A DNA stretch of 64,000 nucleotides, taken from contig BCKZ01000004.1 of NCBI GenBank assembly GCA_001600815.1, positions 806,001 to 870,000 on the forward strand, read 5' to 3'. This document shows, piece by piece, positions 22,841 through 50,394 of this stretch. Under the pieces are notes generated by a model. The model was given only the letters and a program-made list of their open reading frames with translations, was not told the origin of the DNA and ran no database searches. The number at the start of each line of letters is the position of its first letter. Within the stretch, counting starts at the first letter, position 1. The position numbers and the translations under genes were made by a program. The DNA is from Alloascoidea hylecoeti (taxonomy: Eukaryota).

Positions 22841-24308
22841 TTATTTCTTACTAGCTTTCTTTGAAGTTGAATCTTTAGGTAATTCTTTTGTGAATGGCAA
22901 GAAATCCGGTTCACCTGGAATATATTTACGTAAAACCTCTGGAACAACAATTCCATCTGGAGTTTGGTAATTCTCTAAAATACAACACAATGCTCTCTCA
23001 GTAGCCGTAAGAGTTGAGTTTAGACAGTGAACATATTTCTTCTCCCTCTCATTGGGTTGTTTAACACCACATCGAATTTCAAGATTTCTGGATTGATAGT
23101 CAGTACAGTTAGAACAACTAACTAATTCTTTATACTCAGATTGGAATGGGAACCAAGCTTCCAAATCGTATTTCTTAGCGGCAGCATTGTTTAATTCACC
23201 AGAAACAATACCGACAACTCTGTATGGTAATTTCAATGATTTGTAGAAATCTTCAGAAATGCCAAACATACGATCAAATTCTTGCCATGATTTATCTGGT
23301 TCAGTTAAAACAAATTGTTCGATTTTTTCAAAAGCGTGAACTCTAAAAATACCCCAAGCATCTTTACCATGAGAACCAGCTTCTCTTCTAAAACAAGAAG
23401 AATAACCAGCATATCTCCTAGGCAATTGTTCAGATGGTCTCTGGAACCATTCACCAGAATGATAAGCAGAAATTGGTTGTTCTGAGGTAGCGATTAGATA
23501 TTTCTCATCACTGCCATCAATAACTTTATATAATTCTTCATCAAATTGTGATAATTGAGCAGTTTTGGCCATAACATCTTTATTTAACATAACTGGAGCT
23601 TGTAATGGAATATAGCCTCTCTTTTTATCGGCTAAGAAAGATAATCCATAGTTGATTAACGCCTGGTTAAGAAAGACACCATAATTTCTTAAGAAATAAC
23701 CACGATGTCCAGACATCTTAGCACCTCTTTCTGGGTCATAACCATCTAATCTAGTTAAAACTTCATGGTGTGATAATACAGCAGGCGAACCTGTACCAGC
23801 TGCAATCTTACCGATTTCAATACCTTCAGGGGCCCAAGTTCGAACGAGTTCATTATTTTCTTCATCATTACTGACAACAACTGATGGATGAACAATGTTA
23901 CCAACAAGATTAACCTTGGTACGAAGCAGATTGTCGATATATTCTTCGTGTTTCTGTAATGCGGCTTTTTCTTCGACGATAAGATTCTTTTCTTTAATGA
24001 GATCAGATGCATCTTCTTTAGCCTTAAATCTTTTACCAATTTCTTTTTGGACTTTGTTTTGCTTCTTGTTTAGTTCATCGAGATCAAAACGAGCTAAGTA
24101 AAGAATGGTTAGAATAAATAAACGAACTGAATTGAGAAATATCTCAATTTAAATCTCCTTATTATTTCGGCATACTTTTGCTCCAGTCCTTATACTCCGC
24201 GATAATTTCATCAACCAACTCCACAGGATCTCCACGAGCTTTCTGGGATACTCTGATTGCTTCTGGATTTCCTCCTTTTTCCTCGATGAATTGCAAAATA
24301 TCTAACAT
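22841..24308 (-). CDS. SES1: Cytosolic seryl-tRNA synthetase; exons 24176..24308 and 22841..24093, 461 aa
   Basis: MLDILQFIEEKGGNPE..., LIATSEQP, FRREAGSHG, ELVSCSNCTDYQSR. Intron 24094..24175 (GTATGC...TTCTAAC...TAG) restores one frame. Confidence 0.96.
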
Positions 24309-24486
24309 TCTTGAGATCAGTGGTGAGAATGAAAAATGAGTAACAAATGAAGGAAGACTCAAATTTTATATATGCCAACACCGTGGCACTTGTGCAACTC
24401 TACACCCATCCATCTCCATCTCCAGACTTCACTTAAATTTAAGTACATCTAAATTGTTAATTTATGGATCACGAGCACCATTTCAA

Positions 24487-25185
24487 ATGTCTACTTTGCC
24501 TTCGAGTTTCATCCCTTTTTCAGTCGTAGTCAAGGATCATTCCACCATTTCCCAAGATACGAAGAGTTCCATAAAAGAGCCAACATCCGATAGAAATGAG
24601 CTTGAAACAACTCAACAGCAGATCTCATCTTTAGATAACGTGAACTCCTCCACATTATCTGTTTCAACCATAACCTCTGTAATGTACCCTCCAAGAGAAA
24701 TAATTCCTGAAATTCGTTATGTGTTCTCGGATGATCAGACAATAATAGATGGAGGAGAAAATTCGTCTACAGATCCTGTGATAATAATTGATTTTGCAGA
24801 AGATTGTGAGACTATTACTGATGCAAAATGCTTATCTGAGGCATGGCAAATAACATCTGTATTGAAATCAAAAAGGGAATCTAATAACAATAATACGGCG
24901 GGCTCATCATTTCCATCCCACCCAAGCTCAGAAATGGGATCCGAATCGGAATCCAGATTTTCTGGGACATCACTAAATAACCCCAATAAACCGATTTATT
25001 TGGTTATTAATGGAACAAGTTCCGAGCTGATTTCAAAATCCAAAACCAAAATAAATAGTGATAAGAAACATGCACATTTGCCTACAGATCAGAAGACACT
25101 CAATGAAATTAATAGGCTCACAGAATTGTTCCAAATAAGAAATGAGCAGCTTCAAGATGTTTTGCATCCTATAATTGATAATTAA
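24487..25185 (+). CDS. ATG31: Atg31-like autophagy protein
   Basis: VVVKD...MYP..EIRYVFSDD...VIIIDF...LSEAWQI pattern resembles Atg31. Head-to-head with SES1 and near FAL1, as YDR021W-YDR022C-YDR023W are in S. cerevisiae. Confidence 0.7.
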   Translation: MSTLPSSFIPFSVVVKDHSTISQDTKSSIKEPTSDRNELETTQQQISSLDNVNSSTLSVSTITSVMYPPREIIPEIRYVFSDDQTIIDGGENSSTDPVIIIDFAEDCETITDAKCLSEAWQITSVLKSKRESNNNNTAGSSFPSHPSSEMGSESESRFSGTSLNNPNKPIYLVINGTSSELISKSKTKINSDKKHAHLPTDQKTLNEINRLTELFQIRNEQLQDVLHPIIDN

Positions 25186-27249: not shown

Positions 27250-30200
27250 ATGATTAAGCTTCAGGTGGTTTTGGTGCCGATATCTCTCTCCCACCCCAAT
27301 GGAAGATTTACACTCCCAAGCACACCAAATCGACCTTCTCCCTACTTTCCAAAGCATTTGAAGTTTCTTCATATAACAGATGGCTCACAAACCATGTTGG
27401 ACGTTTGTAGCGAGATATCCATTAGATTTTGCAGGTTATATCCAACTTTGGGGTAAGTTTTGACATGAATAAATTGTTACCCTTTAATCTGTCTGATACC
27501 CAACCTAACTAACAAAACACATTAGTCTTTTGGAAATTGAAACTCTACAGGATGAAAATGGTTGTGATTTAGATCCTGATTATAGGGTCGAAAGTATTTT
27601 TTCTTATGAGAGTTCTGGTAATATTCTACAAGTCATGCTACGAAATGATTTAAATGAAGACTTAAATAAATTTCAGAAAAGGAAGAGGAGCATGCCTAGC
27701 ACACCAAGAGAAAATAAAAAGAGAAGGCATTTATTATATGAACAAAATCAAGAGTCTCCTCTTGGCAGTGATAATGATGAAGGAGAGAATAGCATACCAA
27801 ATATGAATTGGGGGTCTATATCTTCTTATAGAAACATCACCCATGATCCTGAAGAATTGAGAAAAGTATCTCTATCTAGTTCCCTACAAACAGACTATAC
27901 CGGTACATTTACTAGGTCCATCATTGGTAATGAACCTATAATCGAACACAATATTCAATCGATCAATGAGATCCCTTCAACGAATGAAGAAATGGCTGAG
28001 CCAAAGGTTCTAAAAAATGTCCAAATATTAGGTTTGAACCAGAAAGCTCTTTCAACTCAAGCTATTCCAACCTCAGAAACACAAATCCAGACTATAGATA
28101 TCCAATCCCCTGTTGAAAAGATAGAGGCAGTTAAACAAACATCTAATAATGAAACCACTATAGTTTTTACTAAAGAGACTGCTGTGCAAACCACAGACAT
28201 AGAATTTAAAGAACCTCTTAAGATGGTAGAAGAAAGTATACAAAGATCTGATAATGAAACCCCTATAGTTTTTACCAAAGAGGCTGCTGTGCAAACCACA
28301 GACATAGAATTTAAAGAACATCTTAAGATAGCAGAAGAAGGTATACAAACGATTGATAATAAGGAACCTATGGTAAAAACGGTCATTCAAACCACAGATA
28401 CAGAAATTGAAATACCTGCCGAGACGACAGATGTAGTTATAGAAATATCGGATAATAAAAAGCCTATAACTTCTACTATTGAAACGGTCACACAAATGTC
28501 TAATAGTGAAGAACCTACGGCTCCTACAATAGAAACTACCATCGAAACTACAAATACAAAAGTTAAAGAGCCTGTTAGACAAACCTTAGACAATAAAATA
28601 CATATAGTCCCTACTATAAAAACTGATGTTCAAGCTATAAATATAGGTATTGAACCCCCTGTTGAATTCCAAAAAGAGCAAATCTTTGATAAAACTAAAA
28701 CTGCTCAAACTGTTATTCGAACTTCTGAAAATAATATATCTGAAATTCAAGCTAACTCTAGTACTGAAGATAATATACCTATAGCTAACTTCCAGAATGA
28801 AAATGAAATCAGGAAGTTGGACGGCGAACTTCAAACAAAAGATTTGAACATCGGCTCTCAGGAAACTCAGGTCGCAGCTAAAACTGATGCTTTGGTCGAT
28901 TATTGTTTTGATTTAACTAAAATGGCTTATACTAAATTTGTAAATGAAAAAGAGGAGAAAAGCATACCATTACTAAATGAACCAGTTACTGCACCGCAAA
29001 GAAATGAAAATTCGAATGATACAAATAATAACGAAAGCCCAATTAATACTTCAGTGATACCAGCTCAACAAGAAGAATCCATGAGTGATACAACTTTTAA
29101 GTCTAAAGGAACCAAAATGATTATATCTAAAACCAATCCGCCGTCAAATGGTTCATCATTCTTATCAATTAATAAACAATCGCAACAGAATAATCCGTTA
29201 AGTCCACTTCTACCTCCTATCCTTACTATAAAATCGCGATTTGGCGATGATATTTTCCCAAATTATAGTGACACTTCTAGTATTTCTAGAGGAACACGAT
29301 ACTCTAAAAGAACACGACATTCAAGATCACCAATTACAACCAAAAACGATTCCCTCAAAATTTCAATAAATGACGTACAATCAGTAGATAAAGATAATTT
29401 GAAAATGAAAAGTACAGATACAGAGAAGGTTGATGTTCCTAAGATAAGTCAAGATCATCAGCAAGACACTGTGCAATCAGTTGAAAAACATAACTCGGAA
29501 ATGAAAAGTACAGTTGTGGAAAAGGTTAATGTTCCTAAGGTAATTAATCAAAAAGATGTTGAGAAATTTGCCGAATCTCCGAGAAAAAAGGCTGAATATA
29601 AATATCAACAATTCAAAAAATCTGTTGTTTCAAGAAAAAAGGAGAAAGAGAAAAATATGATTGAAGAAAAAGTGGTATCAAATACTCAAGATAAAATAAA
29701 GGTACAGAAAGTTGAAGAATCAAGAGGAACAATAGATAGTAAATCCAACCCCCACAAGATAGGCTCAATATCTTCTACCAATTCAACATCTGAGTCTAAT
29801 GACAAATTTAAGGTCATTGCTTCTGAAATAAAGAAGCAACTACCAGTGAAATATCCAAGGAAATCTATAACTTATGATATAGAGCATAAAAAAATAGGCT
29901 CGAATGGGGTAGAAACTCTTGTGGAAGGAAGAAATGGACAAGAATCAGATAAAAATAATATAGAAAAGGAAACCGAAGAGAATCAATTATGTTTGAAAAA
30001 AGATAATACAGACACTAGAATGAATGATAATACCAACCATAACGAATCGAATAAGCGGTTATTAGACACTTCTATTGGGGCTCCTTTATCCAATTCTATT
30101 AAAGATGAGATTAAACCAGTCAAAAAGAAGAGAAAACGGCTGTCTAAAAGCAATTTTCTTAAGAGTTTACAAATAGATATGCTTGATAAAGTTATCAAGC

Positions 30201-32895: not shown

Positions 32896-33267
32896 AGTAT
32901 ATAATAGAATGTTCGGAAATTTATTCATGCTGGAGTTTGAATAATTAATCTAAACTCAAATGTTTATAATTACTATTAAATACCTAGTGCATATAGCAAT
33001 AAGATAAATATAATGATAGATTATAGATTTATAATAATATAAATATAAATAATAATAATTAGTTTGATATATTAGTATTATAACTTTAATTCACGTATAC
33101 ATAAAGAAAATATCTAACTTATTTAATTCCAAATCAAAATTTATAGAGATAAAAAAATATATGAGTATAAAAGGAGAAATAGCAAAATGGAAAAATAGCA
33201 AAGATAACAAAAAATAAAAACACAGATCAAAATATCAATTGTAAAACAATATTAATTTTCAACAATT

Positions 33268-36200
33268 TTAATCAGACTTTGGTTTTTCACGATAAAAAAG
33301 TGATCGAAAACGTCTAAAGATTCCTCTTAAAAGAAAATTATAAAACCAAGAAAATACAAATAATTTCCTTGGACTAACAGATTCTGAAATTGAGTCTGTA
33401 TCTGAATCTCTTTCAGCAACAGCTTTAGACTTACCTTTATCTTTCTTTATTAGTGGTTCGGAGGTTTCTGTAGTAGAAGGATTAGTTACAACAGCTGCTG
33501 AAGTAGTTGCTTCAACAATAGTTTCAGTAGGTTCCAAAGCAGATTGTACATCAGCTTCTTTTGATACTTTATCAGAATCAACTGCCAAAGTTCTTGTACT
33601 AGTCTCCGTTTCTTGTGGTTCGATATTTGGCCTTTGTTTTGCTTCTTCAGCTTTTAAAGCAGCTTCTTTCTCTAACTTTTCTTTTTCAAGTCTTTCTGTT
33701 TCTGCTTTTTCTGCAGCAACTCTTTCAGCTTCAGCTTTAGCAGCGACTTCCTTTTCTAGTTTTTCTTTTTCAATTCGTTCAGCTTCAGCTTTCTCGGCGG
33801 CAATTCTTTCTGCTTCGACCTTTTCAGCTGCTTCCTTCTCTAATCTTTCAGCTTCTGCTTTCTCGGCTGCAATTCTCTCTACCTCAGCTTTAGCAGCAGC
33901 TTCAGCAGCTGATCTTTCCTTTTCGATTCGTTCAGCTTCTGCCTTTTCAGCAGCTAGTCTTTCCTTTTCAAGTCTTTCAGCTTCTGCCTTTTCAGCAGCA
34001 ATTCTCTCAGCTTCTGCCTTAGCAGCGGCTTCAGCAGCTAATCTTTCTTTTTCCAGTCTTTCAGCCTCAGCTTTTTCGGCGGCGATTCTCTCAGCTTCTG
34101 CTTTCTCAGCAGCTAGTCTTTCCTTCTCAAGTCTTTCAGCTTCNNNNNNNNNNNNNNNNNNNNNNNNNNNNNNNNNNNNNNNNNNNNNNNNNNNNNNNNN
34201 NNNNNNNNNNNNNNNNNNNNNNNNNNNNNNNNNNNNNNNNNNNNNNNNNNNNNNNNNNNNNNNNNNNNNNNNNNNNNNNNNNNNNNNNNNNNNNNNNNNN
34301 NNNNNNNNNNNNNNNNNNNNNNNNNNNNNNNNNNNNNNNNNNNNNNNNNNNNNNNNNNNNNNNNNNNNNNNNNNNNNNNNNNNNNNNNNNNNNNNNNNNN
34401 NNNNNNNNNNNNNNNNNNNNNNNNNNNNNNNNNNNNNNNNNNNNNNNNNNNNNNNNNNNNNNNNNNNNNNNNNNNNNNNNNNNNNNNNNNNNNNNNNNNN
34501 NNNNNNNNNNNNNNNNNNNNNNNNNNNNNNNNNNNNNNNNNNNNNNNNNNNNNNNNNNNNNNNNNNNNNNNNNNNNNNNNNNNNNNNNNNNNNNNNNNNN
34601 NNNNNNNNNNNNNNNNNNNNNNNNNNNNNNNNNNNNNNNNNNNNNNNNNNNNNNNNNNNNNNNNNNNNNNNNNNNNNNNNNNNNNNNNNNNNNNNNTTTC
34701 TAACCTCTCAGCTTCTGCTTTCTCGGCTGCAATTCTCTCAGCTTCTGCCTTTTCTGCAGCAATTCTTTCCTTTTCCAGTCTTTCAGCTTCTGCCTTTTCA
34801 GCAGCAACTCTCTCGGCTTCAGCTTTAGCGGCCTCAGCAGCTAGTCTTTCCTTTTCTACTCTTTCAGCTTCTGCTTTCTCTGCAGCAATTCTCTCAGCTT
34901 CTGCTTTGGCAGCAGCTAGTCTTTCTTTTTCTAACCTCTCAGCTTCAGCTTTCTCTGCAGCTAGTCTTGCCTTTTCAGCAGCAATTCTCTCGGCTTCAGC
35001 TTTAGCGGCGGCTTCAGCAGCTAGCCTTTCCTTCTCTAATCTTTCTTTTTCTTTCCTTTCAGCTTCAGCTTTTTCAGCAGCGATTCTCTCAGCTTCAGCT
35101 TTAGCGGCAATCCGTTCTGCCTCTGCCTTTTCAGCAGCAATTCTCTCTGCCTCGGCTATAGCAGCTAGACGTTCCTTTTCTAATCGTTCTGCCTCGGCTT
35201 TCTCTGCAGCAATTCTTTCTTGTTCTTTCTTTTCAGCTGCTAGTCGCTCTTTTTCTAATCTTTCAGCTTCAGCTTTAGCAGCTGCTTCGGCTTCTAGTCG
35301 TTGCTTTTCTAGTCGTTCTGCTTCAAGACGCTCTTTTTCAAGTCGTTCCAATCTTTCCTTCTCTAATTTTTCAGCTTCTATTCGTTCTTGTTCTTTTTTA
35401 GCTTCCTCTTCAGCAAGTTGTTTAACCTTTGCTTCTGCAACACGTTTTGCTATTTCAGCTCTTTTTGCAGCTAATTTTTCTTTTTCTTCTTCTTGTGATT
35501 TCTAGTATAACGGTCAGTTAGTATTGATTTAGATCGGACTTAGCTTTATTTGGCAAATCATTTTTGGTTTCGTAATTATAATATCATGCATTAAAACACA
35601 AAAACAATTCAATAGATTCGAATTCAAGATTTGAATATTTTTCGATTCAACTGAAAAATTGGAAACAAAATAATTTTAATGTATGATCCATCGAAATTAA
35701 CCAATCCAACATCTTTAATATTGAATTATAGATGTGCTATTGCATAATATTTATGTAAAAATGGGGTGTATAAATATAAAAAACATACCACAGCAACAAC
35801 GGGAGTAGAATCTTGCAATTTTTTTTCAATAATTGGAGCATTGAGAGATTCCTATAAATAAAGGAAAAATTTATTTATTTTCATATGGTCAATATATGCT
35901 TAAATTTAAAATATAAACTTGATTCTTTTCTTTTTTGGGGGAGGTGCGAGGGTTAGAACAGAAGGGCCGCATATATAATAATGATGGTTGAAATTTAAAA
36001 AAAAATAACGTCATAAATAAAAAATAAATAACAAAAAAATTATGCATTTTTAAAAAAGGGGGTGATAAACTTTGATTTTTGATCTGAATCATATCCGAAT
36101 CAGAAACCCAAAACAAACTTAATGAAAATTTTCAGACATTTTTTTAGTCAAAAAAAAGTAAAAAAAGTGGAACAAAAATCAAATGAAAAGTAGAAAAAAT

Positions 36201-37386
36201 AGCACCTTCTGTTACCAATAACCTATAGCTATAGCTAAAGCTACCCTTCAATTAAAAAGATGTTTCAATCTACTTACAGCTGACAATCTTCTTGGAGCTC
36301 CATTAGATTCGGTAGTAGCAGGAGTAATCTTTGGCAATTGAGTCAGAATTTCATTCCCATTGATATAACTTGCATCTCGACTTCTTATTGGGCTTAAAGG
36401 TACCTCAAATACCTTACGAAAACTTACAGTTCCATCGTCTTCATTTTCATTTAACTTTGCAACGTCTTCAAAATCGTCAGAAACGTGTGGAAGAGTCGAT
36501 TTTGGCTCCTCGGCTAATAATAAAAGGGGTTAGTTAAAGATCTAACATATATAATAGTAAATAATTTCTTAAAACTATAATGTAACAGAACCAATTGGTT
36601 TTAACTGTTGCACCTGACAATAAGATGAGCAAAGAATTGTTCAAGACAATATGGATCATAACGCCATGATCGGGAATGGTGGAATCAACAGAAAAGTGAG
36701 ACCTTGCAGAAAACATACCTTTTACAGAGACCAGAGTAGGAGCAATAGTAGTAGATTGAGGCATCGGTACAGTAATTGAGTGGTTTTGGAGTCCGTTATT
36801 ATCAGTAACTAGGGAGTTAAAAAAAAAAGTTAGGGATTTTGGGAATAGAATAGAAAAAAAAGGGAGGAAGCTAAAAAAACTAGAGAATGTATATTTTATG
36901 TGTGTGCGTTACCAGGGGCACGTCATCCATTTTTTTTTCTGATTAATCACAGGAAGATCGACCAGTCAGCACCGACCCAGCAAAGAACCAAGATTAATGC
37001 TCGGCACACACTGGTCAGATATTAAAATGCCAGCAAATCAATCCAACCTTCTTGTGGTTACAACTATGGCCATGGCATACCAAATCTCTTGTTTGAGGAT
37101 GAGGTTTTGTTAAATAATGTAAAGTAAACTTACCAATAGGATGTTCACCGTCATCAGAGGAAAGGACCCATTTTCCATTGACAATGAACTTGTAGCTATA
37201 TGTTTTTCCACCAGATAGCTTGACTGAGCCTGAGAAAAGGCCTCTCTCTGAGGCATCTTCTTTCAATTGAATAGGAGTCCAGTTGGAAAAGTCGCCTGCA
37301 AGCTGGACCAAATAGTCAGAGTTTGAGTCATCGGGGGTTCTATAGCTAAAAGGGGTGTCAACCAAAACGGGAGTATTTGCAGACAT
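33268..37386 (-). CDS. Six-exon gene: N-terminal CBM48/AMPK-beta-type glycogen-binding domain, long E/K/R/A helical repeat, hydrophobic/amphipathic C-terminus. Exons 37134..37386, 36719..36808, 36428..36513, 36278..36328, 35789..35851, 33268..35501 (contains N gap)
   Basis: [10 protein letters not shown]...[11 protein letters not shown]...|[10 protein letters not shown]. All five introns have GTAAGT or GTATGT donors and TAG/AAG acceptors with matching phases. Both sides of the gap translate to the same repeat. Confidence 0.75.
33640..35460 (-). repeat. Coding tandem repeat (AAEKAEAER(L/I), EKERLAA units)
   Basis: Dozens of near-identical ~10-aa units on both sides of the gap. Confidence 0.9.
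34144..34695. other. Assembly gap (552 N) within the coding repeat
   Basis: Run of N. The flanking frames are offset, so the gap length is an estimate. Confidence 0.99.
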
Positions 37387-37458
37387 GGCTGGGGCAATTG
37401 AGGAAGAAGAAAAAAAGAGTAACAAATTTGAAGAAACAAAGAGAGATCATAGTTTATC

Positions 37459-38943
37459 ATGCATGTAACCGGATCTGGAAAGATGCTGATACACCCGTGC
37501 ACTCTTTTGGGATCTAGTCGAACGCGTCTCCCCAATTCTAAATTTATAATATTAATAAACCCCCCAAACCACCCAAATCTTCTAATGCTGCCCGAATCAC
37601 GACCCGAAACTCGACCTCGGCTAAGACTCCGGCCCAGGCGACGTGTTCCGAAATCTGATACTCCCGATAAAGAAGAGGCGCCAATTGGCACATCCACACC
37701 AATTCATCGCTTCAAATACTCCAAGTCACTCAATCCAAACTTACCAAACGATTTATCTTCCATTGCCGAATCTTCTGTCCGCGATTTGACTCCTCAGTTG
37801 CATAAACTGGTCGAGTCAGAACATAAATACGAACCTGCAAACATTAATTCCGATGATTCAGTGGGCGATTTCTCACGAAACGAATACATGGTCGTTGATA
37901 TCCCATCAGACGTAAATATTGATGATGAATCTGAGCCTGTTTCTTCTGCTGCCGCAAGAAAAACACATCAAAGTTTGCTTCAAATAAATGAGAGTTTTCC
38001 TTTGAAATCTTTAAATGTTAATAACAATGACAATAAAAACAGTATTGATAATAATAACAATGACGATAGCATCAGTAACAACAACAAGGATAATGAATTA
38101 TCATCGAATTCTGATGATGATCCCTTTGGCTTTTCAAAATTAAAAACTACAAAAACAACAACTCTCGGAATTAAAAAATTTACCAGAAAAACTCAAAAAC
38201 TTCGAAATTTAAATATAAAGAGATCTGAAACAACCCAACAAAAATATGAAGAAATGTTGAAATCAACTCAGTTAATCGGAAATGCCAGTAATAATAATAG
38301 TAATAATAATAATGATGATGATGACAGCGATTCAAGTTTATATCAAGTTAGTCTACAACAAAACAAACTAACCCCAGATAAATTTACTTTTGAGATAAAT
38401 GAAATTGAAACACAAGCACAAGCGCCTACTCCTGAAAAAACTCCAAATGATGAACCATTACGTTCAATAGATGGTAATAAATTAAATGTGACTAATAATA
38501 TAAGAAGATCTACTCGTATAAAAGATAGAATGAAAATTGATAAATCTAAACCTGTTAAAATAGTAAAAGAAACAAAACAGAAGAAAAGAATAAACTCCAA
38601 AAAGAACTATAATCTCAATCATATTCATAATAATAACGATCAAAAATTAGATATATTTGATTTGGACATATCTAGTAATTCAGATTCATTACCTCAGCCG
38701 AAATCAAAATCAAAATTAAAATCGTCTAAATCAAAAAAATTAAAGACTACAAAAAGAAAATCAAAGTCAAATACAAATGCAAATAAAATAAAGATATACA
38801 ACGATGGAAATGATATAAATAATATAAAACAAATAAAAATTGATAATAGGCAGATAGATTCAACGCTCTTAAAGTCTGGTTTGGATTTGCAAGCAATTGA
38901 TGGTTGGAAATTAGATGAAGAAGTTGTTACTACTAGTGATTGA
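37459..38943 (+). CDS. Low-complexity basic protein with an FGF motif and Sororin-like C-terminus (start may be the ATG at 37585)
   Basis: DDDPFGF at 38113-38133, Lys-rich tract, terminal LQAIDGWKLDEEVV. Confidence 0.6.
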   Translation: MHVTGSGKMLIHPCTLLGSSRTRLPNSKFIILINPPNHPNLLMLPESRPETRPRLRLRPRRRVPKSDTPDKEEAPIGTSTPIHRFKYSKSLNPNLPNDLSSIAESSVRDLTPQLHKLVESEHKYEPANINSDDSVGDFSRNEYMVVDIPSDVNIDDESEPVSSAAARKTHQSLLQINESFPLKSLNVNNNDNKNSIDNNNNDDSISNNNKDNELSSNSDDDPFGFSKLKTTKTTTLGIKKFTRKTQKLRNLNIKRSETTQQKYEEMLKSTQLIGNASNNNSNNNNDDDDSDSSLYQVSLQQNKLTPDKFTFEINEIETQAQAPTPEKTPNDEPLRSIDGNKLNVTNNIRRSTRIKDRMKIDKSKPVKIVKETKQKKRINSKKNYNLNHIHNNNDQKLDIFDLDISSNSDSLPQPKSKSKLKSSKSKKLKTTKRKSKSNTNANKIKIYNDGNDINNIKQIKIDNRQIDSTLLKSGLDLQAIDGWKLDEEVVTTSD

Positions 38944-40032: not shown

Positions 40033-40428
40033 CTACTGTACTGTAGTAAGCAACAATCCTGTAAATTATCGCCAACACTAAAAGCACAGCTCACCTGCTA
40101 CTCTCCCTCCCACAGTATAAACAGGTCTAAATACTGTCCAGGTAGTTCTTAATTTCTCTACCTTACTGCCGAGGGCCTATAACTATTCACTCTCTAAATT
40201 TCCTATATTCTGGTTTTCTACTATATTTTCATAGTTCTCCGATATTTCCAACAAACATAAAAATAGAACCGTTAATTAAGGACACTTTTGAATTATTTTC
40301 ACTCCCATCTTTATCGCAGTTTCAACTTGTTTAAACCCTTTAAATATTTATATTAAAGGAGATATATGTATATGCGTTAAAACCTGCTAAATTTTTTTTC
40401 ATTGTTATTATTATCCATTATTTGAAAA

Positions 40429-43039
40429 ATGAAATTCAATTGCTCATTATCATCTCTTTATCTACTACTAATATCAGCATTTTTATCTTCATCATTTGCT
40501 TTATTAAATGAACCACAAATAGATCCTTCACAATATGGTTATAATGTTCCAGTACGAGATTACGCCTCAAGAACTTATTTCAGCATTGAATTAGATGATA
40601 CTATAACATCATTAGAAACGTTTTCAAATTTATACCCAGATTGGAGATATGAACATCCAGTAGGTAGTTTAAAACATCATTATTTGTTTTCTACTGAAGC
40701 TTCACATTTTGCTAAAAGAGGATTAAATGATAAATCATCCAGAACAATGTATCTGTTACGCAGAAGAACTAATATACAAAACGATGGATTAATATCACTT
40801 CGTATTCATGAACCAAAAAGGTTAATAAAACGAAAACCTGTTCCTATCTCCTTGGAAGATTTATCTTCAAGGGCAGATAGACCTATTGATTCATCCTTGG
40901 TACCAGTCTATGATGCCAAAAAGAAATTCGGTATTGATGACCCATTATTTGAAAAACAATGGCATTTGATTAATCCATCATTTCCAGGTAATGATATTAA
41001 TGTCACCTGGGCTTGGAGTCAGGGTTTCACAGGTCAAAACACCACTACAGCAATTGTTGATGATGGTTTAGACATGCACAATAATGATTTAAAGGATAAT
41101 TATGTATGTTTGTTTGTCTTTTTGCTGAAATTTATATTGTTACTAACCATCTTTATTTTAGTGCAAAGAAGGTTCTTGGGACTTTAATGATAATAATCCA
41201 GAACCTAGTCCTAAACTTTCAGATGACCATCATGGAACTCGTTGTGCTGGTGAGGTTGCTGCTGTCAAAAACGAACAGTGTGGTGTTGGTGTCGCTTTCG
41301 ACTCAAAAGTATCAGGTATCAGAATTTTATCTGGTGAAATAACTGATGTTGATGAAGCTGCTTCTCTCAATTATGCCATGGATGTCAATGATATTTATTC
41401 ATGTTCTTGGGGTCCTCCAGATGATGGTAAATCCATGGAAGCTCCCGATCTAGTTGTTGAAAAAGCACTTGTTAACGGTGTTTTAAATGGTAGAAATGGT
41501 AAAGGAAGTATATTTGTCTTTGCAAGTGGAAATGGTGCAGCGTATGGAGATAGTTGTAATTTTGATGGTTATACAAATTCAATTTATTCAGTTACAGTAT
41601 CAGCATTGGATCATAAAGGTTTACATCCAGTTTATGCAGAAGCTTGTAGTGCCGTCATGATTTCAACTTTTTCAAGTGGTAGTGGGAAATGGGTTTATTC
41701 AACTGATGCTGGAAAAGATAAATGTACAGATCATCATGGAGGAACTTCTGCTGCTGCTCCGATTGTTGCTGGTATTTATTCTTTAGTACTCGGTGCTCGT
41801 CCTGATCTAACATGGAGAGATATTCAATATTTGACTATAGCTACTGCTGTCGAAGTTAATTCTGAAGATGGTAGTTGGCAAGACACAAAAATGAAGAGGC
41901 GTTATTCACCCAGATATGGGTTTGGTAAGATTGATGCAAGCGCTATTGTAGAAGCTGCTTTAAGTTGGGAGAAAGTTAAACCACAAGGATGGTACTTTAC
42001 AGATGTATTAAAGGAAGAACTAAAAATTGGAAAAGATACATCCGTTGAAAGTACAATTTCAGTTTCTAAGAAAGATTTGGAAGCAAACAATCTCGAAAAA
42101 GTTGAACATATAACGGTAACAGTTAATATAAACACACCACTTAGAGGTGACATATCAGTAGAAATAAAAAGTCCGTCTGGTATTAAGTCCTCTCTAGCAG
42201 TATATAGAGACTCCGATAAGAATACAGATGGATTTCAAAACTGGAGATTCATGAGTATCGCATTTTGGGGAGAAGAAGGTGATGGAGATTGGGTCTTGAC
42301 TGTTAGTAATAGGAACAAGAACCATGAAGCCGAATTGGTTGATTGGAGATTAAATATATTCGGAGTTGTTGAAGATGCATCGAAAGCGAAAATCTTTTCT
42401 CTCGATTCAAACAACTCAACTACCTCTGCTGAATCTGATTCCAGTTCTACTATTGATTCAAGCACACAATCAAGTATTCCATCTGTGACATCAATTAATA
42501 ATAATTCAACACTGGCTTCACCGACTTCAACAACTGGTTCATACGATTCAGATAAAGGTACTTCAGAAGATTCAAATTCAGATTCAAATTCAAATTCTAG
42601 TACAGGCCAAGGTTTATTTCATTTACAGATGTCATATGGAACAATTTTATTTATTGTAATAATAGTTGGGTTTTTCGGCATGATGATGTATTTTTGTGGT
42701 GTTGATAGAGCCGCGAAGCGCCGTCGGGCTGCGAGACCAAGAGAATCATATGAATTTGAAATCATACGCCCAGACGATGAATCCTCTTCCGATTCAGAAT
42801 ACTCTATTTCAGACGATGAACAAGGATATGCAACAGGTGAACACCAAGGTATATTACATCAAGAATCTGGCACATATCAACAAGTTGGCCAAAATACTGG
42901 TGATTACGATTTAGAAGCTCAAGATGCTTCTATTACAAAACCTCAAGCTCCAGATTCCACAAAACCAAAACGATCGGAGACTAATAAACCTGAAGAACAA
43001 AGAGAATTGTTTCATGTAGGAAGTGATGATGAAGATTAA
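40429..43039 (+). CDS. KEX2: Kexin subtilisin-like proprotein convertase; exons 40429..41103 and 41162..43039
   Basis: Signal peptide and prodomain ending KR; AIVDDGLD, HGTRCAGE and HGGTSAAAP triad; P-domain, S/T-rich stalk, TM, YEF tail. Intron 41104..41161 (GTATGT...TACTAAC...TAG). Confidence 0.96.
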
Positions 43040-43212
43040 AGGATCAAAAGACTAGAAATATTTTTTCCAATAAAATTGTGTATTACCTAGAAGAATTTAA
43101 ATGTTTTTGCAGTTGGATTTAATTATTGATATTTTTATTGAATATTTACAAAGAAGATTTTATAGGTTATTATAGATACATAAATTTAAACCTATGTGGG
43201 AACCACTGATAC

Positions 43213-44652
43213 CTAGTTGGTTGCCAGTGCTCCACAAGGGTCCCAAGGAGGTAATACAATTGGCTCCCCTTCCAAATATTGTTTTAATCCGAATTTCTCC
43301 AATTCACTTTTTTCAACAACAACTTGGTAAACATATTCTTTGAAGAAGTCATGTGTCATTGTAAAGTAACCTTTCTTACCAACATCTTTTCCCCAAGAAT
43401 TTTCAACTCTCCATTTGATAGGTTTACCATCTTCTAAGTGAACTCCTGTAAAGAGCATAGCATGTGTCATTAATGACTGACGATAGCGAAGTCTATCTGC
43501 TTTTGATTGAGAAGTATGATAATTAATCAGATCATACTGCCAAAGTTTGTTATCAATTATACCAGTTTTTTTATCGTGAAATATTGGGGTATGGGTTCCA
43601 AAGAAAACAGGTTTGTTATTTAAGATTCTATCAATTGCCATGTTTGTCAAGGTATCACATTCAACATTTAAATATTCTACTGGGGCTCCGCCAACAACAT
43701 TACCAAGTTTATCGATATTTATTTTCCTATTGTAATCATTTCTTGGATCATTAAGAAGTGAAACTGTCTCTGAACAATTGAAATTAACAACATCCTTATA
43801 GAATTTTGTTGGTGTTGTAAGTAATGAATGATATTTTTTATCTTTATCCTTATATTCCCATTTAAACTCATCGTTTGGACCGGGAGGTGTACCCATAAAT
43901 AAGATCAATAATCTATGAATTTCTTGTTGTTGTTCAATCTTTGCTTTTGCAACTTCATCCCATTGTTCTTTTGAAACTAAATCTCGTAGAATCATAGCAT
44001 ATTCTCTCAATTTAGTTGTTACCATCTCATTCATTTGTCTTGATGCTGTTGTATTATAGCTATCTGGAAAAATTGTATCCGGAACAATACCATATTTTTC
44101 AACAAGATTCGAAAACATGGCGAATTGACCACCATCACCAATAGGATCTAACAATAAATGCTGGACCAATCTAGAGTCTACAGATTCAGATTCCGAAGCT
44201 ATTATTTGTTCCAAAAACCAGTTAGATTTTTCCAATTTATCGTAAAAGAACAGAAAAGATGGTGATAGTTGGAAATGCTTAATCTTATATTTTTCCATGA
44301 TTGCCGGTCTCATAAGATTTGTTCCGGCAAATAACCAACATCTACCACTTGCTTTTTGGTTAGTGATTGGTGATCCCTCGGTGGATATTACGTTTGAAAA
44401 TATATCTAAATTGTCATTAATATAACGATCCCGGTTGATAAGTACATCATGAGCATTATGAGTTCGAAGAGCAGCAGCAGCTAATTGAGTGACGGGATCC
44501 GACTTCAAGGCCGTCTGCCACTGGGAAATCTTGGATGGTGATATAGAAGCTACCGAGACAAGAGATGAAGGTGCCTTTGAGTGTTTAAACCTGAGATTTA
44601 CAGTTTTGAGTCTTGGCCAAAGGGCCTGTTTAACTGGGTTAGTTCTAAGCAT
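43213..44652 (-). CDS. LAP3: Bleomycin hydrolase / cysteine aminopeptidase (C1B) with N-terminal presequence
   Basis: NQKASGRCWLFA, MTHAM, WRVENSWG, PWDPCGALA. First ATG is at 44652 (the ORF-track start is a TTG). Confidence 0.94.
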   Translation of the reverse strand: MLRTNPVKQALWPRLKTVNLRFKHSKAPSSLVSVASISPSKISQWQTALKSDPVTQLAAAALRTHNAHDVLINRDRYINDNLDIFSNVISTEGSPITNQKASGRCWLFAGTNLMRPAIMEKYKIKHFQLSPSFLFFYDKLEKSNWFLEQIIASESESVDSRLVQHLLLDPIGDGGQFAMFSNLVEKYGIVPDTIFPDSYNTTASRQMNEMVTTKLREYAMILRDLVSKEQWDEVAKAKIEQQQEIHRLLILFMGTPPGPNDEFKWEYKDKDKKYHSLLTTPTKFYKDVVNFNCSETVSLLNDPRNDYNRKINIDKLGNVVGGAPVEYLNVECDTLTNMAIDRILNNKPVFFGTHTPIFHDKKTGIIDNKLWQYDLINYHTSQSKADRLRYRQSLMTHAMLFTGVHLEDGKPIKWRVENSWGKDVGKKGYFTMTHDFFKEYVYQVVVEKSELEKFGLKQYLEGEPIVLPPWDPCGALATN

Positions 44653-44802
44653 AAAGGACACGAATTTCTGACACACACAGTTTAGAATTTTGGAGGTTAA
44701 AAATATAAATTTAAACAAAAATAAATTTCATTTATTTGCACATTGTAAGCTAATTTTTAGTAGACATTAATTAGCTGTAGACTATTTTGAAACATATTCA
44801 TT

Positions 44803-45981
44803 TTAGGCAAAGTCTTCAATTTTCAAAACAATTTTTCCCTTCGCTCGAGCTGTTAAAAGCTTATCAATTGCCTTCTGGAAATCAAGCCAGTCATATTCCG
44901 AATCAATAACCACTTTTATTGTACCATCCTTAATTAGTTTCGCTCCAAGATCAAGCCAATCTCCCGATGTAACGTCGTGAACAATATATCTCATACCCCA
45001 TAAACCACCGAACAATTTTCGCCCAAGCATATTGGGTTGATAAAGATATGCAGATGTTCCTCCAATGGCATCTGGTGTACTCTTAGAATCACCCACCAGG
45101 GTGACGAACGCCGAACCGTTCTTACTTGGTTCAAGTATTTTGTCACAAATACTGAATATTGAACTGCCTCCAATACAATCCAAGATTAAATCAAACTTTT
45201 TATGGTTTATCACTTCTTTCTCGACATAATTAACCAATTGTGGATTTTGTCCTTCGATTAGACGATAATTGATGCATTTATCGGCACCAAGACTTGTACA
45301 AAGTTTTTCACCTTTATTGGAACAGGTGACGACAACATTATCAGCTTTCCAATGCTTCTTCGCCAGTTGAATAGCCATAAGTCCAACCGAAGTAGCACCT
45401 CCGAGAATTAGTACGTTAGAATAAATAAGTTTTTTGAAATCCAAATAGGAGAGTGATTGATACGCAGCACCAAATGTTAAAGGCCAGGCAGCTGCTTCCA
45501 TATAACTGACGTTTTCCGGCTGTGAAGTGAACTTATCAACTTTTGGGTTGACGATGATATGTGATCGAATGGTTCCTGAGCCTAGCTTCATATAAATCCC
45601 GCAAACATGTTCACCGGTTCGATATTTTCCTTTTAAGTTGCTTCCAACTTCAATGATTTCACCACAATAATCCCTTCCAATACCCTTTTCTCCGGCGTAG
45701 GTCCACATAGATTGGGAACTTTTTATCTTGATGTCGAGTGGATTGAGCGCAGCGGCCTTGACTCGTATGACTAGATGATCAGGATCAACAGGAAGTTCGA
45801 TTCTACCGTAGACAAATTGAAGTTTTGAATCGGGACCAGGCACATCGTAGATCAATTCTTTTGTGGGAATGTAGTTGATAGGCCTCAACGGACGAAGAAC
45901 CCTTTTGAGAGTCTTTGGAGCCTCTTCAGAGGGTTTTGGATGTTGGTGAAAAGGCTGTTTTGTCGGATCAGTTGTAGGCAT
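44803..45981 (-). CDS. AST1: Ast1/Ast2-like medium-chain reductase (quinone oxidoreductase fold)
   Basis: LKRVLRPLR...IP N-terminus typical of Ast1/2; ALNPLDIK, GRDYCG, ILGGATSVG, RAKGKIV. Confidence 0.7.
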   Translation of the reverse strand: MPTTDPTKQPFHQHPKPSEEAPKTLKRVLRPLRPINYIPTKELIYDVPGPDSKLQFVYGRIELPVDPDHLVIRVKAAALNPLDIKIKSSQSMWTYAGEKGIGRDYCGEIIEVGSNLKGKYRTGEHVCGIYMKLGSGTIRSHIIVNPKVDKFTSQPENVSYMEAAAWPLTFGAAYQSLSYLDFKKLIYSNVLILGGATSVGLMAIQLAKKHWKADNVVVTCSNKGEKLCTSLGADKCINYRLIEGQNPQLVNYVEKEVINHKKFDLILDCIGGSSIFSICDKILEPSKNGSAFVTLVGDSKSTPDAIGGTSAYLYQPNMLGRKLFGGLWGMRYIVHDVTSGDWLDLGAKLIKDGTIKVVIDSEYDWLDFQKAIDKLLTARAKGKIVLKIEDFA

Positions 45982-46324
45982 GTCTAGTTGCTATAAAATT
46001 ACACTAGAGAGAATAGGTGTAGTTATACCAAAAATTAAAACATAATATTTCCATATACTTAGGTATAAAAATACAAACATCGAAACATAATTAAACAAAA
46101 CACAAAACAATCAATCAATCTATTATATACACCTGTGGCGATCTAATCCAAGATTTGCATTGCTTTTCCTTTTTCCTGAGATTAAAATATTCAACGAAAA
46201 CTAACATTTAAGTTGACGTAGCTATAGGCCTATATATAAAATTCCGGGCCTATTACTTTGACATCTTACAACACGATAGCATCATAATTTACAATATCAT
46301 TTCTAATTGAATTATGTGCTGTGT

Positions 46325-48379
46325 TTAAGGGGCAATTGTCCGGTAACGGCTCCATCTCCAAATTCTTGCCTTGCAATCACCACTACCAGTTGCAAACAAC
46401 CCACTACCAGCTTCGCTGCCATTTGCAGCTACACTGACACTGATGACACTATTTCTATGTCCTTGTAACATCAAGAGAGGATTTCCTGATGATTGCTCCC
46501 AGAATATTACACCCCTGTCTTTAGAACCAGATAAAATAAATTCATCATCAGGTGTAGCACATACTGAAAGAACAAAGTCTTTGTGCCCGACATATGACAC
46601 CTCACATCGAGATGGACGTCCAGTGCCTGCTGATTTCAGAGACCATAATTTAACTGTTTTATCCAAAGATCCTGATGCAATCTCTTTACCACTTGGAGTA
46701 AAAGCAACACTGTAGACACTATCCGCATGTCCATCACCAACACCATTCTCACTCTCTAATCTTTCAACCAAGAATCCATTGGAAGCATCCCAAACACGTA
46801 CAATGCGGTCCAAAGAACCAGCAGCAATGAACTTACCATCGGGACTAACGGCAACTGTCGTAACACCATCTTCAATACTCAGAGTTAAGCTGCATTGTCC
46901 GGTTTCTAAATCCCAAATACGAACAGTTTTATCACCAGAGCCGGAAACTAACCTTTTTCCATCAGGGAAAAAATCTAACGAGTAAATATCTTGCTCATGT
47001 CCTTTCAAGTACTGGGTGATTCTTTTGGTTGTTAAATCCCAAATTCGAATTAATCGATCTTCTGCACCAGTGGCCAAATATTTTCCATCAGGTGAAAAAC
47101 AAATAGAACGAATATATAAATCACCATTCGCATTAGGTGTCATATCCGAAGGTTGATTGTTTCCTGGGTTAATATTATCATCAACCAATCTACAAGCAAA
47201 TTTACCAGTTTCAACATCAAAAACTTGAGTGATTTTATTGCAACCAGTAGCCAAAAATCTTCCATCTCTGCTGAAACGAACACAACATACAACAGATGAA
47301 TGATCTAATGAATGAACTAAATCAACATCCACTCTTTTGGGAAGCTCGGGATTAAAAATAACGTAATACTCAGGTGTTTGCTTTTTCATATCGGCAGGAA
47401 TATTTGCTGCGTCCAAATCATTTAAAAATGGTGGAATTTGGCGAGGAGTCACCTGCATGTTACTATCATTCAAAATTTGCTGCTGAGGTGGTTGTATTAG
47501 TTGTTGCCGAATATGCTGAGGTGGTTGGGTTAACTGAGTTGAGGGGATCCCTGGAGTTGATATACCATGAGATCTGGGTGATTGTTGAGGAAGCTGATAC
47601 ACTGGATGCAGTTGACCCTGTGGTCCTAGTTGACCAGGAAAAGGAGTAGACTGGTGATGCTCAGCTTTCACCTGTTGTTGATGAGCTTGTTGCTGAGCCT
47701 GAACCTGAGCTTGTTGCTGAGCCTGGGCCTGGGCCTGCTGTTGAGCTTGAGCATGGGCTTGCTGCTGTTGGGCTTGGGCCTGAGCTTGAGCTTGAGCCTG
47801 GGCCTGAGCTTGCTGCTGCTGCTGTTGAGCTTGAGCCTGGGCTTGAGCTTGAGCCTGAGCCTGTTGAGCTTGAGCCTGTTGCTGGGCTTGTTGCTGGGCC
47901 TGTTGCTGGGCCTGTTGCTGGGCTTGTTGTTGTGCTTGCTGCTGAGCTTGCTGCTGGGCTTGCTGCTGGGCTTGCTGCTGTTCATGAGGTGGTAAAATCG
48001 GACCTCCAGGTCCATTGTTCCCGGTCATAAGATTAGAGGATCTCTGAAGATTAGGTGGAGGATCTTGATTGACCACCTGTAGTTTTTGGGTATGTTGGAT
48101 ATTTCGATCCCTAGCTTCTAATTCTTGCTTCAATTTCAAGATTTCTTCCTCATATTGTTCTTTAATTTTTTTGTGGGCCGCTTCAAGTTCATAGACTGCG
48201 TGTCGAATCTGCTGCATTTCTGCTGTTTGTTGAGAAAATTTGTGGTCAAACTGATCCTTATGTATGCGATAGGATGATGCTTCATTGGTGACATTTTCAA
48301 ATTCTTGCTTCACTGCATCTAACAATTCACCAAGTCGATTACTTGGGTGGATGGCTGGTTGTTGTTGCCTGTAAGACAT
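46325..48379 (-). CDS. TUP1: Tup1 general transcriptional corepressor
   Basis: Tup_N helix ([13 protein letters not shown]...[13 protein letters not shown]) and WD40 repeats ([34 protein letters not shown]). First ATG is at 48379. Confidence 0.97.
47672..47980 (-). repeat. Gln-Ala coding repeat (QQQA and QA units, ~100 aa) in TUP1
   Basis: Directly visible CAG/CAA/GCC/GCT tandem units. Confidence 0.92.
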
Positions 48380-48557
48380 GTTGAAAAAAAAATAAGATGA
48401 GCTCAAGATCTAAAAAAGAGGATGGGAAGATGTTGGAGGAGCAATATTAAATACACCTCAGCCTGTGCTGTATATTACGCTTTCGTTCCCTACACTACAC
48501 ATGTTTGTTTATATGTATGAAACCTTAACCATATAATAATAATAGTAATTTCTCAAA

Positions 48558-49591
48558 ATGCCCCCAAAGCGAGCAACTACTGCCAAAACAGCGGAGAGCA
48601 GTAAATCCAAGAAAGTAAAACAGGTTAAAACCACTGGAAGAGGGCACAAGGCAACGGATATTGAAAACGAAAAAGATGACATAAATAAGGTCGCAAATCT
48701 AAGTTCCAAATCTAAGAAGAAGGGAGTTGAAGATCATGAGCTAGAATATTTGAATATGACAGTTTTAGATAAGCTCTTAACAAAATCAAAAGAATCAGAA
48801 CCTGAAAGATTGCTTCGAGAATATAAAGTAGCCTCAGAGAAAAAAAATCAGGATTCAGATATCTTAATTGCATCCCTATTATCAAAGGTGGAGGAGTTAG
48901 AAAAATTGAATAACGACCTTTCAGAACAACTAAAACAAAGAAATGTGTCAAATGGGGAAGTAGCTAAAAAGCAATCTGGAAAAAGAGTAAATGGGAAAAT
49001 ACAATCTAATGATAGGAACGATGTAGAAGCGTTAAGAAAACAAAATATACTATATAAAGATTTAATCAAGGAAAAGGATGAAACAATTGACGAATTGAAA
49101 GTAAAGTTGGAAGAATCGAATGCCTCAAAAGAAGAACTAGAAGAATCGTGTATATTTAAAGACGACTTTTCGTTTCTGATATGTGGATTGCAAATTCATG
49201 AAACAACAACAACAGACACATATGTTATATTTGATTGCACCCAGACGAGTCCTAGTGGTGGTATGTTTGTAACTTATAATTTTTATTGAAAGTTTATAAT
49301 CCCTTTACTAACATTACATAAAAAGCGTTTGATTATAAATTGCATATTCCAAGAGCAATCGATGAAGATGATGAACAGGGTGACTTACTATACGAGCCTC
49401 AACTCAAAGAGGATGAGATTGAATATTGGGAAAAGAAATTACCAGACTACTTATTAGATACCATTGAATTTCCACCGAGTTTTGTAAGTCAATTTTCAGG
49501 TTTATAATAGGTCTATATCTTCTAACACTGATTTCACTAGGCACGACAGTTTTATTTAAAAATGACTCGTTCTTTACAAGCAAAAAACTGA
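48558..49591 (+). CDS. CSM1: Monopolin subunit Csm1/Pcs1; exons 48558..49260, 49326..49483, 49541..49591 (303 aa)
   Basis: Coiled coil, then GLQI...FDCTQT|...DYKL...YEP...LPDYLLDTIEFP|..QFYLKMTRSL. Two canonical introns; divergent from TUP1 as YCR084C/YCR086W. Confidence 0.85.
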
Positions 49592-50394
49592 ACATGACTC
49601 CTCTGTTTTTACCAGTGCCACGGCTAGTATCATGGTATTTTATGAAATGATTTGTGCTCGTACAAGTGTGTACTTTATTAATATTTAACCTTTGTAATAT
49701 AAGTTATATATATTTATGTGTTTTCTTTAAATTTATGAATTTAAACGATTGAGATATATTGGAATATTCCTGGAGTCAATATTAAAATATCTGAACCGAT
49801 ATCAGGATAAAATTAACGCTGTCGATAGTATGCCAAAGAGGCACGGAGTCTATACAGTGAAGCACGACCTTCTTCTAAATCCCATAACATAAAATAGCAT
49901 AAGATATAGGGCCCCAGACGTCCTTGTATTATGTATAAGAATTTTGAAGTTCAAAGTCCTGGCCTGATTGTCGTCGAGCAAATATACCTTTCCGGATCCT
50001 GTAGAAGACCCGAGGATATGCAACACCATCCCAAATGTCCTCAGACTACTCCGACCTATTTGTTGTTCCTCTGATTCTTCTCGTTCAAAGTAAGCCTTTT
50101 ATGTGCCGAGAATATATATATCTAGATCTATATTTTTAGGAATATCTTGGGGGTGGTGTCGGAAATAAAAGCGCAACTTTCAACTTGACCCGGCTGCAAC
50201 GGATAAAAAGCCGACAATGACAAATTAAAAGAATCAGATATCCATGTATTTTGAATTAATTTCGATTAAAACCAAATAAATACAAAATTAAAATCCCGAA
50301 TTCTTCTAAATCTCGGCAACCGGAAAAAAAAGCTCTTTATAATTGTAAAATACGCTCATCTAGATCACAAAATTCGGGAACCTTTTCTAATATT

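Follow-up and report, generated by a model that had tools for sequence, protein, structure and literature searches.

What is encoded on the minus strand at positions 33268 to 37386 of the stretch of Alloascoidea hylecoeti DNA studied here (assembly GCA_001600815.1, contig BCKZ01000004.1, positions 806,001 to 870,000)? This stretch of 64,000 nucleotides is called the window, and all positions refer to it. It comes from a budding yeast, has a GC content of about 33% and holds genes that are mainly long uninterrupted open reading frames (ORFs). A first-pass annotation had proposed that scattered ORF fragments at this locus are the exons of one gene for a rod-like glycogen tether or glycophagy receptor with an expanded spacer. 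In this study, a single spliced protein-coding gene, running on the minus strand from an ATG at 37386 to a stop codon at 33270-33268, proved to be a well-supported model. Its product joins a glycogen-binding module of the CBM48 class, a linker, a very long helical rod, a disordered stretch and a C-terminal helix. We read it as a cytosolic tether-type protein of at least 773 residues that would hold glycogen to a membrane, a reading to which we give an even chance. Its leading and most attractive sub-reading is a local counterpart of the yeast glycophagy receptor Atg45, because the order of parts matches that of Atg45.

The minus strand was inspected from 37700 to 35400 and the exons were joined by script. 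Exon 1 (37134-37386) opens with the first ATG of its ORF (37386-37384) and encodes residues 1 to 84 and the first base of codon 85, which comprise an AMPK-beta-type CBM48. It is followed by intron 1 (36809-37133, 325 nucleotides), which reads GTAAGT...CCCTAAC...TAG with the internal heptamer 21 nucleotides before the 3' splice site. Exon 2 (36719-36808, 90 nucleotides) supplies the final beta-strand of the carbohydrate-binding module (CBM) and the start of the linker. Intron 2 (36514-36718, 205 nucleotides; GTATGT...AACTAAC...TAG, heptamer 16 nucleotides before the 3' splice site) separates it from exon 3 (36278-36513, 236 nucleotides), which encodes a P/S/T/E-rich linker. Beyond intron 3 (35852-36277, 426 nucleotides; GTAAGT...TTCTAAC...TAG, heptamer at 101 nucleotides) lies exon 4 (35789-35851), with 63 nucleotides or 21 codons, a consensus acceptor and a GTATGT donor. 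Intron 4 (35502-35788, 287 nucleotides) reads GTATGT...TACTAAC...TAG, and its heptamer, 16 nucleotides before the 3' splice site, has only one other copy on the minus strand throughout the window. The heptamers are branch motifs of the CTAAC type, and all four introns contain stops in all three frames. The exon phases are 1, 1, 0 and 0, and the reading frame agrees at every junction; exon 3, with a length of 3n+2, is needed to bring exon 2 (phase 1) into frame with exons 4 and 5 (phase 0). The first-pass annotation had drawn six exons and five introns. Its in-phase spliced gene with canonical introns was recovered, but five exons and four introns suffice, and the sixth exon was not reproduced.

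Exon 5 (33268-35501) is interrupted inside its repeat by an assembly gap of 553 N (34144-34696). The part before the gap (34697-35501) encodes 268 residues of an A/E/K/R/L helical repeat. After the gap, 169 further repeat residues (33637-34143) are followed by an S/T/E-rich segment between rod and tail (33373-33636), a C-terminal helix of 26 residues (33295-33372), and the final eight codons with the TAA stop (33268-33294, the stop itself at 33270-33268). The gap size is nominal, because 553 cannot be divided by three and the reading frames before and after the gap disagree. The 773 residues sequenced are therefore a lower bound on the length of the protein, which would reach about 957 residues if the nominal gap were fully coding.

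Do these exons really belong to one gene? It might be argued that two neighbouring but separate genes have been joined, one for a small protein with a CBM48 and the other an unrelated ORF of repeats, or that the locus is a decaying pseudogene. Such a view is encouraged by the public gene call at this site (P0002, 123 residues, 37015-37386, minus strand), which is exon 1 read into intron 1 and is 100% identical over exon 1. The exon joins were made from the DNA sequence and not from RNA, and the assembly gap lies within the last exon. Four introns per gene are also unusual in a budding yeast, and those described here (205 to 426 nucleotides) are longer than three other likely introns of the window (57 to 73 nucleotides; 27453-27525, 41104-41161 and 49484-49540, plus strand). 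However, the 268- and 291-residue parts of exon 5 contain no Met, nor do exons 3 and 4, so that the repeat ORFs require upstream exons. The ORFs of exons 4 and 5 begin exactly at their acceptor TAG. When mini-exons that start with ATG, end in a perfect donor and could be spliced to exon 4 or exon 5 were sought, all candidates were out of frame except an internal Met of exon 2, and no alternative start exon was found. Phase agreement at the four junctions would arise by chance alone in about 1 of 81 cases.

Codon usage also speaks for one gene. Log-odds were trained on 12 Pfam-supported ORFs of the window, and in the frame of the model they were positive for every exon: +26.5, +12.6, +40.8 and +17.0 for exons 1 to 4, and +238.7 and +246.8 for the parts of exon 5 before and after the gap. 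In both other frames all exons scored negative (-10.6 and -14.0 in the case of exon 4), and the four introns were negative in 11 of their 12 frames. The two halves of exon 3 were both positive (+22.1 and +18.7), compared with a maximum of 10.6 among 66 intron windows. The splice-donor hexamers GTAAGT and GTATGT are depleted in the window as a whole: mononucleotide shuffles contain 43 +/- 6.5, whereas the plus strand has 17 and the minus strand 32, of which six fall within this gene.

The CBM fold gives a further test of the first splice. A custom CBM48 hidden Markov model (HMM) was built from 229 domain segments, at most two per protein, taken from 287 domain matches in 149 proteins, with P0002 excluded. 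Exons 1 and 2 joined scored 71.3 bits, compared with 63.6 for exon 1 alone, 62.7 for read-through into the intron and 62.4 for a control that joined exon 1 to exon 3. The splice that joins ...HPI to VTDNNG... carries the HMM alignment through the last CBM strand and gains 7.7 bits over exon 1 alone. The domain is thus completed only after splicing, as had been claimed from the first reading, whereas intron-blind calling truncates the gene within the CBM fold, which is what P0002 represents. Among three metatranscriptome runs, linked by a shared study only and each with a word share of 0.00, the numbers of matching contigs were 0, 0 and 1; the lone record, of 170 nucleotides, is 90-95% alike and covers the repeat only. 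Taken together, we consider joined genes or a pseudogene very improbable.

Within the one-gene model, the inclusion of exon 4 is least certain because skipping it also preserves the frame. Two other splice forms were considered and rejected as constitutive. The first would use a GTAAGT donor at 36427 with the exon 4 acceptor, in frame, and the 50 codons lost to it score as coding (+18.7 against the maximum of 10.6 in the 66 intron windows). The second is a 51-nucleotide in-frame intron at 33434-33384, which has no CTAAC motif and whose 16 codons score as coding (+15.6 bits). A Rfam scan of 33000-38000 gave two sub-threshold matches (E 0.16 and 0.99) and revealed no intronic snoRNA or other family in the introns.

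What does the N-terminal head do? Exon 1 alone matches Pfam AMPK1_CBM (PF16561) with an E value of 4.7e-8 and 33.6 bits, above the gathering score of 26.8, whereas CBM_48 (PF02922; 17.4 bits) and CBM_20 (14.5 bits) stay under their cutoffs of 22.4 and 23.3. An AlphaFold2 (AF2) model of exon 1, made from a 22-row alignment, reached a predicted local distance difference test score (pLDDT) of 78; the last strand, encoded by exon 2, is missing from this model. The top Foldseek matches to it in the PDB are all AMPK beta CBMs (6c9g_B, 5iso_D, 1z0m_C and, from Sip2, 2qlv_B), with E values of 7e-5 to 1e-4 and TMq of 0.60-0.69. A two-sequence profile run against the PDB found the CBM48 of LSF1 and of a pullulanase, the AMPK beta1 and beta2 CBMs and yeast Sip2. 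In an alignment to 4yef_A, W36, K66 and W73 fall on W100, K126 and W133 of AMPK beta1. According to the mutants described in PMC6274970, W100G and K126Q abolish glycogen binding of AMPK beta1 and W133L weakens it. By its aligned residues and modelled fold, exon 1 is thus an AMPK-beta-type CBM48, as first annotated, with the key glycogen residues retained, and the head would be expected to bind glycogen. A Pfam search at E values up to 1 with exons 2, 3 and 5 (the 21 residues of exon 4 were left out) gave no match and hence no alpha/gamma-binding domain of Snf1 beta subunits such as Sip1, Sip2 and Gal83. Since no such domain follows the CBM, the protein is apparently not a kinase subunit.

The linker behind the head comprises residues 99-214 (116 residues) and is rich in P, S, T, V and E. 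It carries DDFEDV at 36461-36478 (minus strand), exactly where a candidate Atg8-interacting motif (AIM) had been noticed; sequence reading and a motif scan give the core as F129-E-D-V132 with S-D-D upstream. FEDV fits the pattern [WFY]xx[LIV] as had been proposed, but the pattern is weak. The linker contains two matches, FEDV and a basic FRKV, compared with 0.87 expected by composition, and the motif by itself therefore proves little. Its position adds weight, since residues 129-132 are close to the AIM of Atg45 at 127-130, and FEDV may be a site of Atg8 binding.

These observations bear on the main alternative, in which the protein is a non-autophagic glycogen anchor resembling Crp1 and Mdg1, fixed at the cell cortex or an organelle by its C-terminal helix, with FEDV a chance match and Atg8 uninvolved. 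The number of motif matches expected by chance is in keeping with it, and a tail that is hydrophobic and then basic would also suit a short tail anchor. Crp1 of S. cerevisiae also has a PF16561 domain and is found together with glycogen synthase at the cell periphery, and its deletion is described as lowering glycophagy only slightly (PMC11145338). Yet FEDV has a full acidic context, with S-D-D before the core and E-D inside it, and its distance from the CBM almost equals that of the proven AIM in Atg45. In Atg45, moreover, the helix at the extreme C-terminus is a part whose function was tested (PMC11145338). We therefore regard an anchor of the Crp1 type as doubtful, although it is the strongest competitor of the tether reading.

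The most unusual part of the protein is its rod. At least 437 residues of it are sequenced (268 + 169), and their composition is 30% E, 30% A, 14% K, 10-12% R and about 11% L and I together. The rod is made of imperfect units of 5, 10 and 15 residues, encoded by DNA tandem repeats of 30-153 nucleotides, which explain the assembly gap. AF2 predicted residues 2-169 of the post-gap part as one uninterrupted helix, for most of which pLDDT exceeds 90. The 437 sequenced residues correspond to a length of about 65 nm if each contributes 0.15 nm. Opposite charges are paired at i+3 or i+4 at a rate of 0.39 per residue.

Is such a rod a coiled coil? If it were, the protein could be a dimeric scaffold like the plant PROTEIN TARGETING TO STARCH (PTST) proteins, recruiting enzymes or regulators to glycogen with no membrane tethering. 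A coiled coil together with CBM48 is a known combination in PTST proteins, and coiled coil is a frequent annotation of long charged helices. The rod, however, has no heptad, hendecad or pentadecad hydrophobic periodicity. Spectral power at periods of 3.5, 3.6, 3.67 and 3.75 is no higher than in shuffled sequences (z at most 1.4, and at most 0.7 at 3.5), and the hydrophobic occupancy of heptad a/d positions has a mean of 0.26 and a peak of 0.375. L, I and V are mostly 5 or 10 residues apart, so that no continuous hydrophobic seam is formed. A canonical coiled coil is therefore unlikely, and a scaffold of this kind would leave the terminal hydrophobic/basic helix unexplained; we judge it improbable. 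Of the two states suggested earlier for the E/K/R repeats, a single helix or a coiled coil, AF2 predicts a continuous helix and the coiled-coil periodicity is absent. We read the rod as a spacer resembling a single alpha-helix, which is probably monomeric.

Two side observations concern the repeat. It is also open on the antisense strand (33344-35505, plus), in S/A/F-rich frames that have 494 and 462 codons when the gap is counted; these frames score +173 and +174 against +239 and +247 in the sense direction and likewise lack Met; this openness is a mirror effect of the codon make-up of the repeat. In addition, two of the four CTG codons of the gene sit after AEAER in the repeat, a position occupied by I, L or V in 21 of 22 units. 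This fits CTG being read as leucine, that is the standard code, in this yeast.

How would the rod reach a membrane? It is followed by 88 residues (170-257 of the post-gap part) for which AF2 pLDDT is below 50-60 and which, also from their composition, are predicted to be disordered. A terminal helix then occupies residues 258-283 of the post-gap part, with pLDDT of about 85, and only eight residues separate it from the stop. The first half of this helix is hydrophobic throughout and aromatic (mean hydrophobicity 0.9, moment 0.2), and the second half is basic-amphipathic (moment 0.4-0.5, net charge +4/+5). The helix is thus predicted to have membrane-binding character, and the tail would be expected to bind a membrane. 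A hydrophobic/basic tail is indeed present where an amphipathic one had been annotated, but the end given then (...RSLF) is wrong, because eight more residues precede the stop.

We looked for relatives that might reveal which parts of this architecture are conserved. With exon 1 as query, phmmer found 566 proteins at E values up to 0.001. The best 150 of them were listed and seven were inspected; these 150 are mostly tandem CBM48 arrays with several matched stretches, and single-domain fungal proteins are expected to score below them. The only likely relative among the seven is a gene call of 72 residues (P0138), which is 51-53% identical to exon 1 and ends near the same point; it looks like the first exon of an orthologue. 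Another of the candidates considered, P0186 (533 residues), is an unrelated protein with two CBMs. Homologue searches against longer proteins with exon 1 (57 candidates) and with the last 130 residues (1887 candidates) left none that scored. An alignment of exon 1 with P0138 gave 47 matches among 618 candidates, none of which is a full-length fungal relative, and those with names are bacterial or generic. In a protein atlas, exon 1 matched CBM48 clusters only and the tail had no usable match. A metagenome scan matched 463 stretches and yielded two loci (L001 and L002); L002 was discarded as bacterial because of its high GC and its NADH-dehydrogenase-like ORFs.

The surroundings of the gene were also considered. 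Pfam matches in the window include ATG31, a Zn2Cys6 factor, Tup1, Kex2, Tim44, seryl-tRNA synthetase and both halves of ATP-citrate lyase, an enzyme which to our knowledge is absent from S. cerevisiae. The proximity of TIM44 had been put forward as positional support, since TIM44 lies near YIL024C, the Atg45 gene, in S. cerevisiae. A Tim44-domain ORF is present (52220-53536), but it lies 14.8 kb from the CBM gene with at least seven other ORFs in between, among them Kex2, a bleomycin-hydrolase-like peptidase, a dehydrogenase, Tup1, Ytp1 and others. The other annotated ORFs of the window are unrelated to the YIL024C neighbourhood of S. cerevisiae, and no further gene typical of it was found among them. 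The positional argument is therefore weak.

Elsewhere in the window, seryl-tRNA synthetase adjoins ATG31, and Kex2 adjoins the bleomycin-hydrolase-like peptidase with Ytp1 close by (22841-25185 and 41162-51906). These small blocks presumably recall the gene order of S. cerevisiae. The Kex2-like subtilase (40426-43039, plus strand) appears to have a 58-nucleotide intron at 41104-41161 (GTATGT...TTACTAAC...TAG), which links the ORF at 40426-41187 to that at 41162-43039; the Peptidase_S8 match in the second ORF begins only at profile position 32. Divergent from the CBM gene on the plus strand, a stop-to-stop ORF of 496 codons (37453-38943), rich in N, D, S and K and with no Pfam match, begins just 67 nucleotides from the ATG of the CBM gene.

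In the mechanism that we propose, the N-terminal CBM48 would bind glycogen, and the P/S-rich linker would present an acidic F-type AIM candidate about 30 residues behind the CBM. The A/E/K/R helix would serve as a rigid, probably monomeric spacer, about 65 nm long in its sequenced part. After the disordered stretch, the C-terminal helix would insert into or lie on a membrane, and the protein would hold glycogen particles to that membrane. In the Atg45-type sub-reading the membrane would be the phagophore, and motif and tail would cooperate as in Atg45. A glycogen-to-membrane tether is plausible, and a role in glycophagy is unproven. The earlier picture of a rod-like tether or glycophagy receptor with an expanded spacer is upheld as to one gene with a CBM48, a helix and a tail, and loosened where it leaned on the motif and on synteny, both of which are weak. 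It is unlikely, though possible, that the gene encodes a true Atg45-type glycophagy receptor whose Atg8 motif and membrane helix have been moved apart by the insertion of a single alpha-helix 65-95 nm long, in a lineage without a reported receptor of this type.

Several points weigh against the tether reading and its autophagic form. The gene model, although well supported, is built on sequence signals; the assembly gap conceals part of the gene, and exon 4 could be skipped without a change of frame. About one [WFY]xx[LIV] match is expected by chance in a linker of such size. The rod is less charged than classical ER/K helices (E, K and R amount to only about 55%, and Ala to 30%), and only probably monomeric. 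The first half of the terminal helix lacks amphipathicity and might serve as a short anchor in the membrane of another organelle. The likeness to Atg45 appears to rest on a shared domain and short motifs. Atg45 has 189 residues and no rod, whereas here about 600 or more residues, rod and disordered stretch together, lie between motif and tail. Finally, our searches found no relative that extends into linker, rod or tail, and conservation of FEDV and of the tail is thus unsupported.

The domain and the three-part logic of this protein are known. Two features are unusual: a gene with four introns in a yeast that has few, and a helical spacer of such length. In the literature on Atg45 and glycogen and on glycogen binding by Mdg1 and Crp1, we found no rod-bearing yeast CBM48 protein; such limited searching does not establish novelty. 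If the gene does encode an Atg45-type receptor with such an insert, the CBM head would act as a line thrown out from the phagophore, or from a different membrane, on which glycogen granules are caught; selective-autophagy receptors would then have a spacer whose length can be tuned. A rod of this length would make it possible to ask if a receptor of this kind is sensitive to how far its cargo is held from the membrane. Proteins of this kind are easily missed in yeast genomes, because intron-blind calling leaves only a fragment, of 123 residues in the case of P0002.

Among known systems, tail-anchored golgins have a similar layout, in which a long rod connects a capture module to a C-terminal membrane anchor, and they are dimeric coiled coils that capture vesicles. 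This is an analogy of layout only: golgins share no homology with the CBM protein, and their cargo is not a polysaccharide. Plant PTST proteins resemble it in combining CBM48 with a long helical region and in placing things on a storage glucan, but they have a canonical coiled coil, no membrane tail and no AIM. They are plastid proteins and carry the CBM48 at the C-terminus. Crp1 and Mdg1, which are paralogues in S. cerevisiae, likewise begin with a CBM48, behind which comes a long stretch that contains no globular domain; no long regular helical repeat is known in them. ER/K single alpha-helices of myosins, INCENP and CAF-1 are described as long, charged, seamless helices that act as spacers (PMC5347031, PMC4183817, PMC10335832). 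The present rod shares this character, but it is far longer (at least 437 residues), contains 30% alanine and has L or I every 5-10 residues. STBD1 likewise unites a glycogen-binding module, an Atg8-family-interacting motif and a membrane anchor in one chain, according to PMC11145338. Its order is the mirror image, with a C-terminal CBM20 and an N-terminal transmembrane segment, and it is not homologous; CBM_20 stays under its cutoff here.

The closest comparison is with Atg45 (YIL024C), which was described only in 2024. As characterised in PMC11145338, it begins with a PF16561 domain, carries an aromatic-x-x-aliphatic motif some 30 residues further on and has a membrane helix at its C-terminus. 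In that account the glycogen-binding domain (GBD) spans residues 1-96, the experimentally verified AIM is Y127-V-N-L130, and an amphipathic helix at residues 172-187 of 189 binds membranes and acts together with the AIM. The BLAST search that the same report describes placed Atg45 homologues in Saccharomycetaceae and Candida albicans only, and PMC11546884 treats the existence of counterparts in other yeasts, in structure or in function, as an open question. The gene described here, with its similar three-part plan in a yeast that carries ATP-citrate lyase, is a concrete candidate for such a counterpart. It differs from Atg45 in that the motif is FEDV instead of YVNL and the gene has four introns, and the likeness noticed at first reading is qualified by the extra spacer of about 600 or more residues. 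In other respects the comparison is better than the first-pass annotation could tell, since Atg45 too requires an amphipathic membrane helix at its C-terminus and has its AIM at nearly the same distance from the GBD. The likeness holds in the order of GBD, candidate AIM and predicted C-terminal membrane helix and in the position of the motif: the CBM spans residues 1 to about 98 (1-96 in Atg45), the candidate motif lies at 129-132 (127-130 in Atg45), and both helices stand near the C-terminus.

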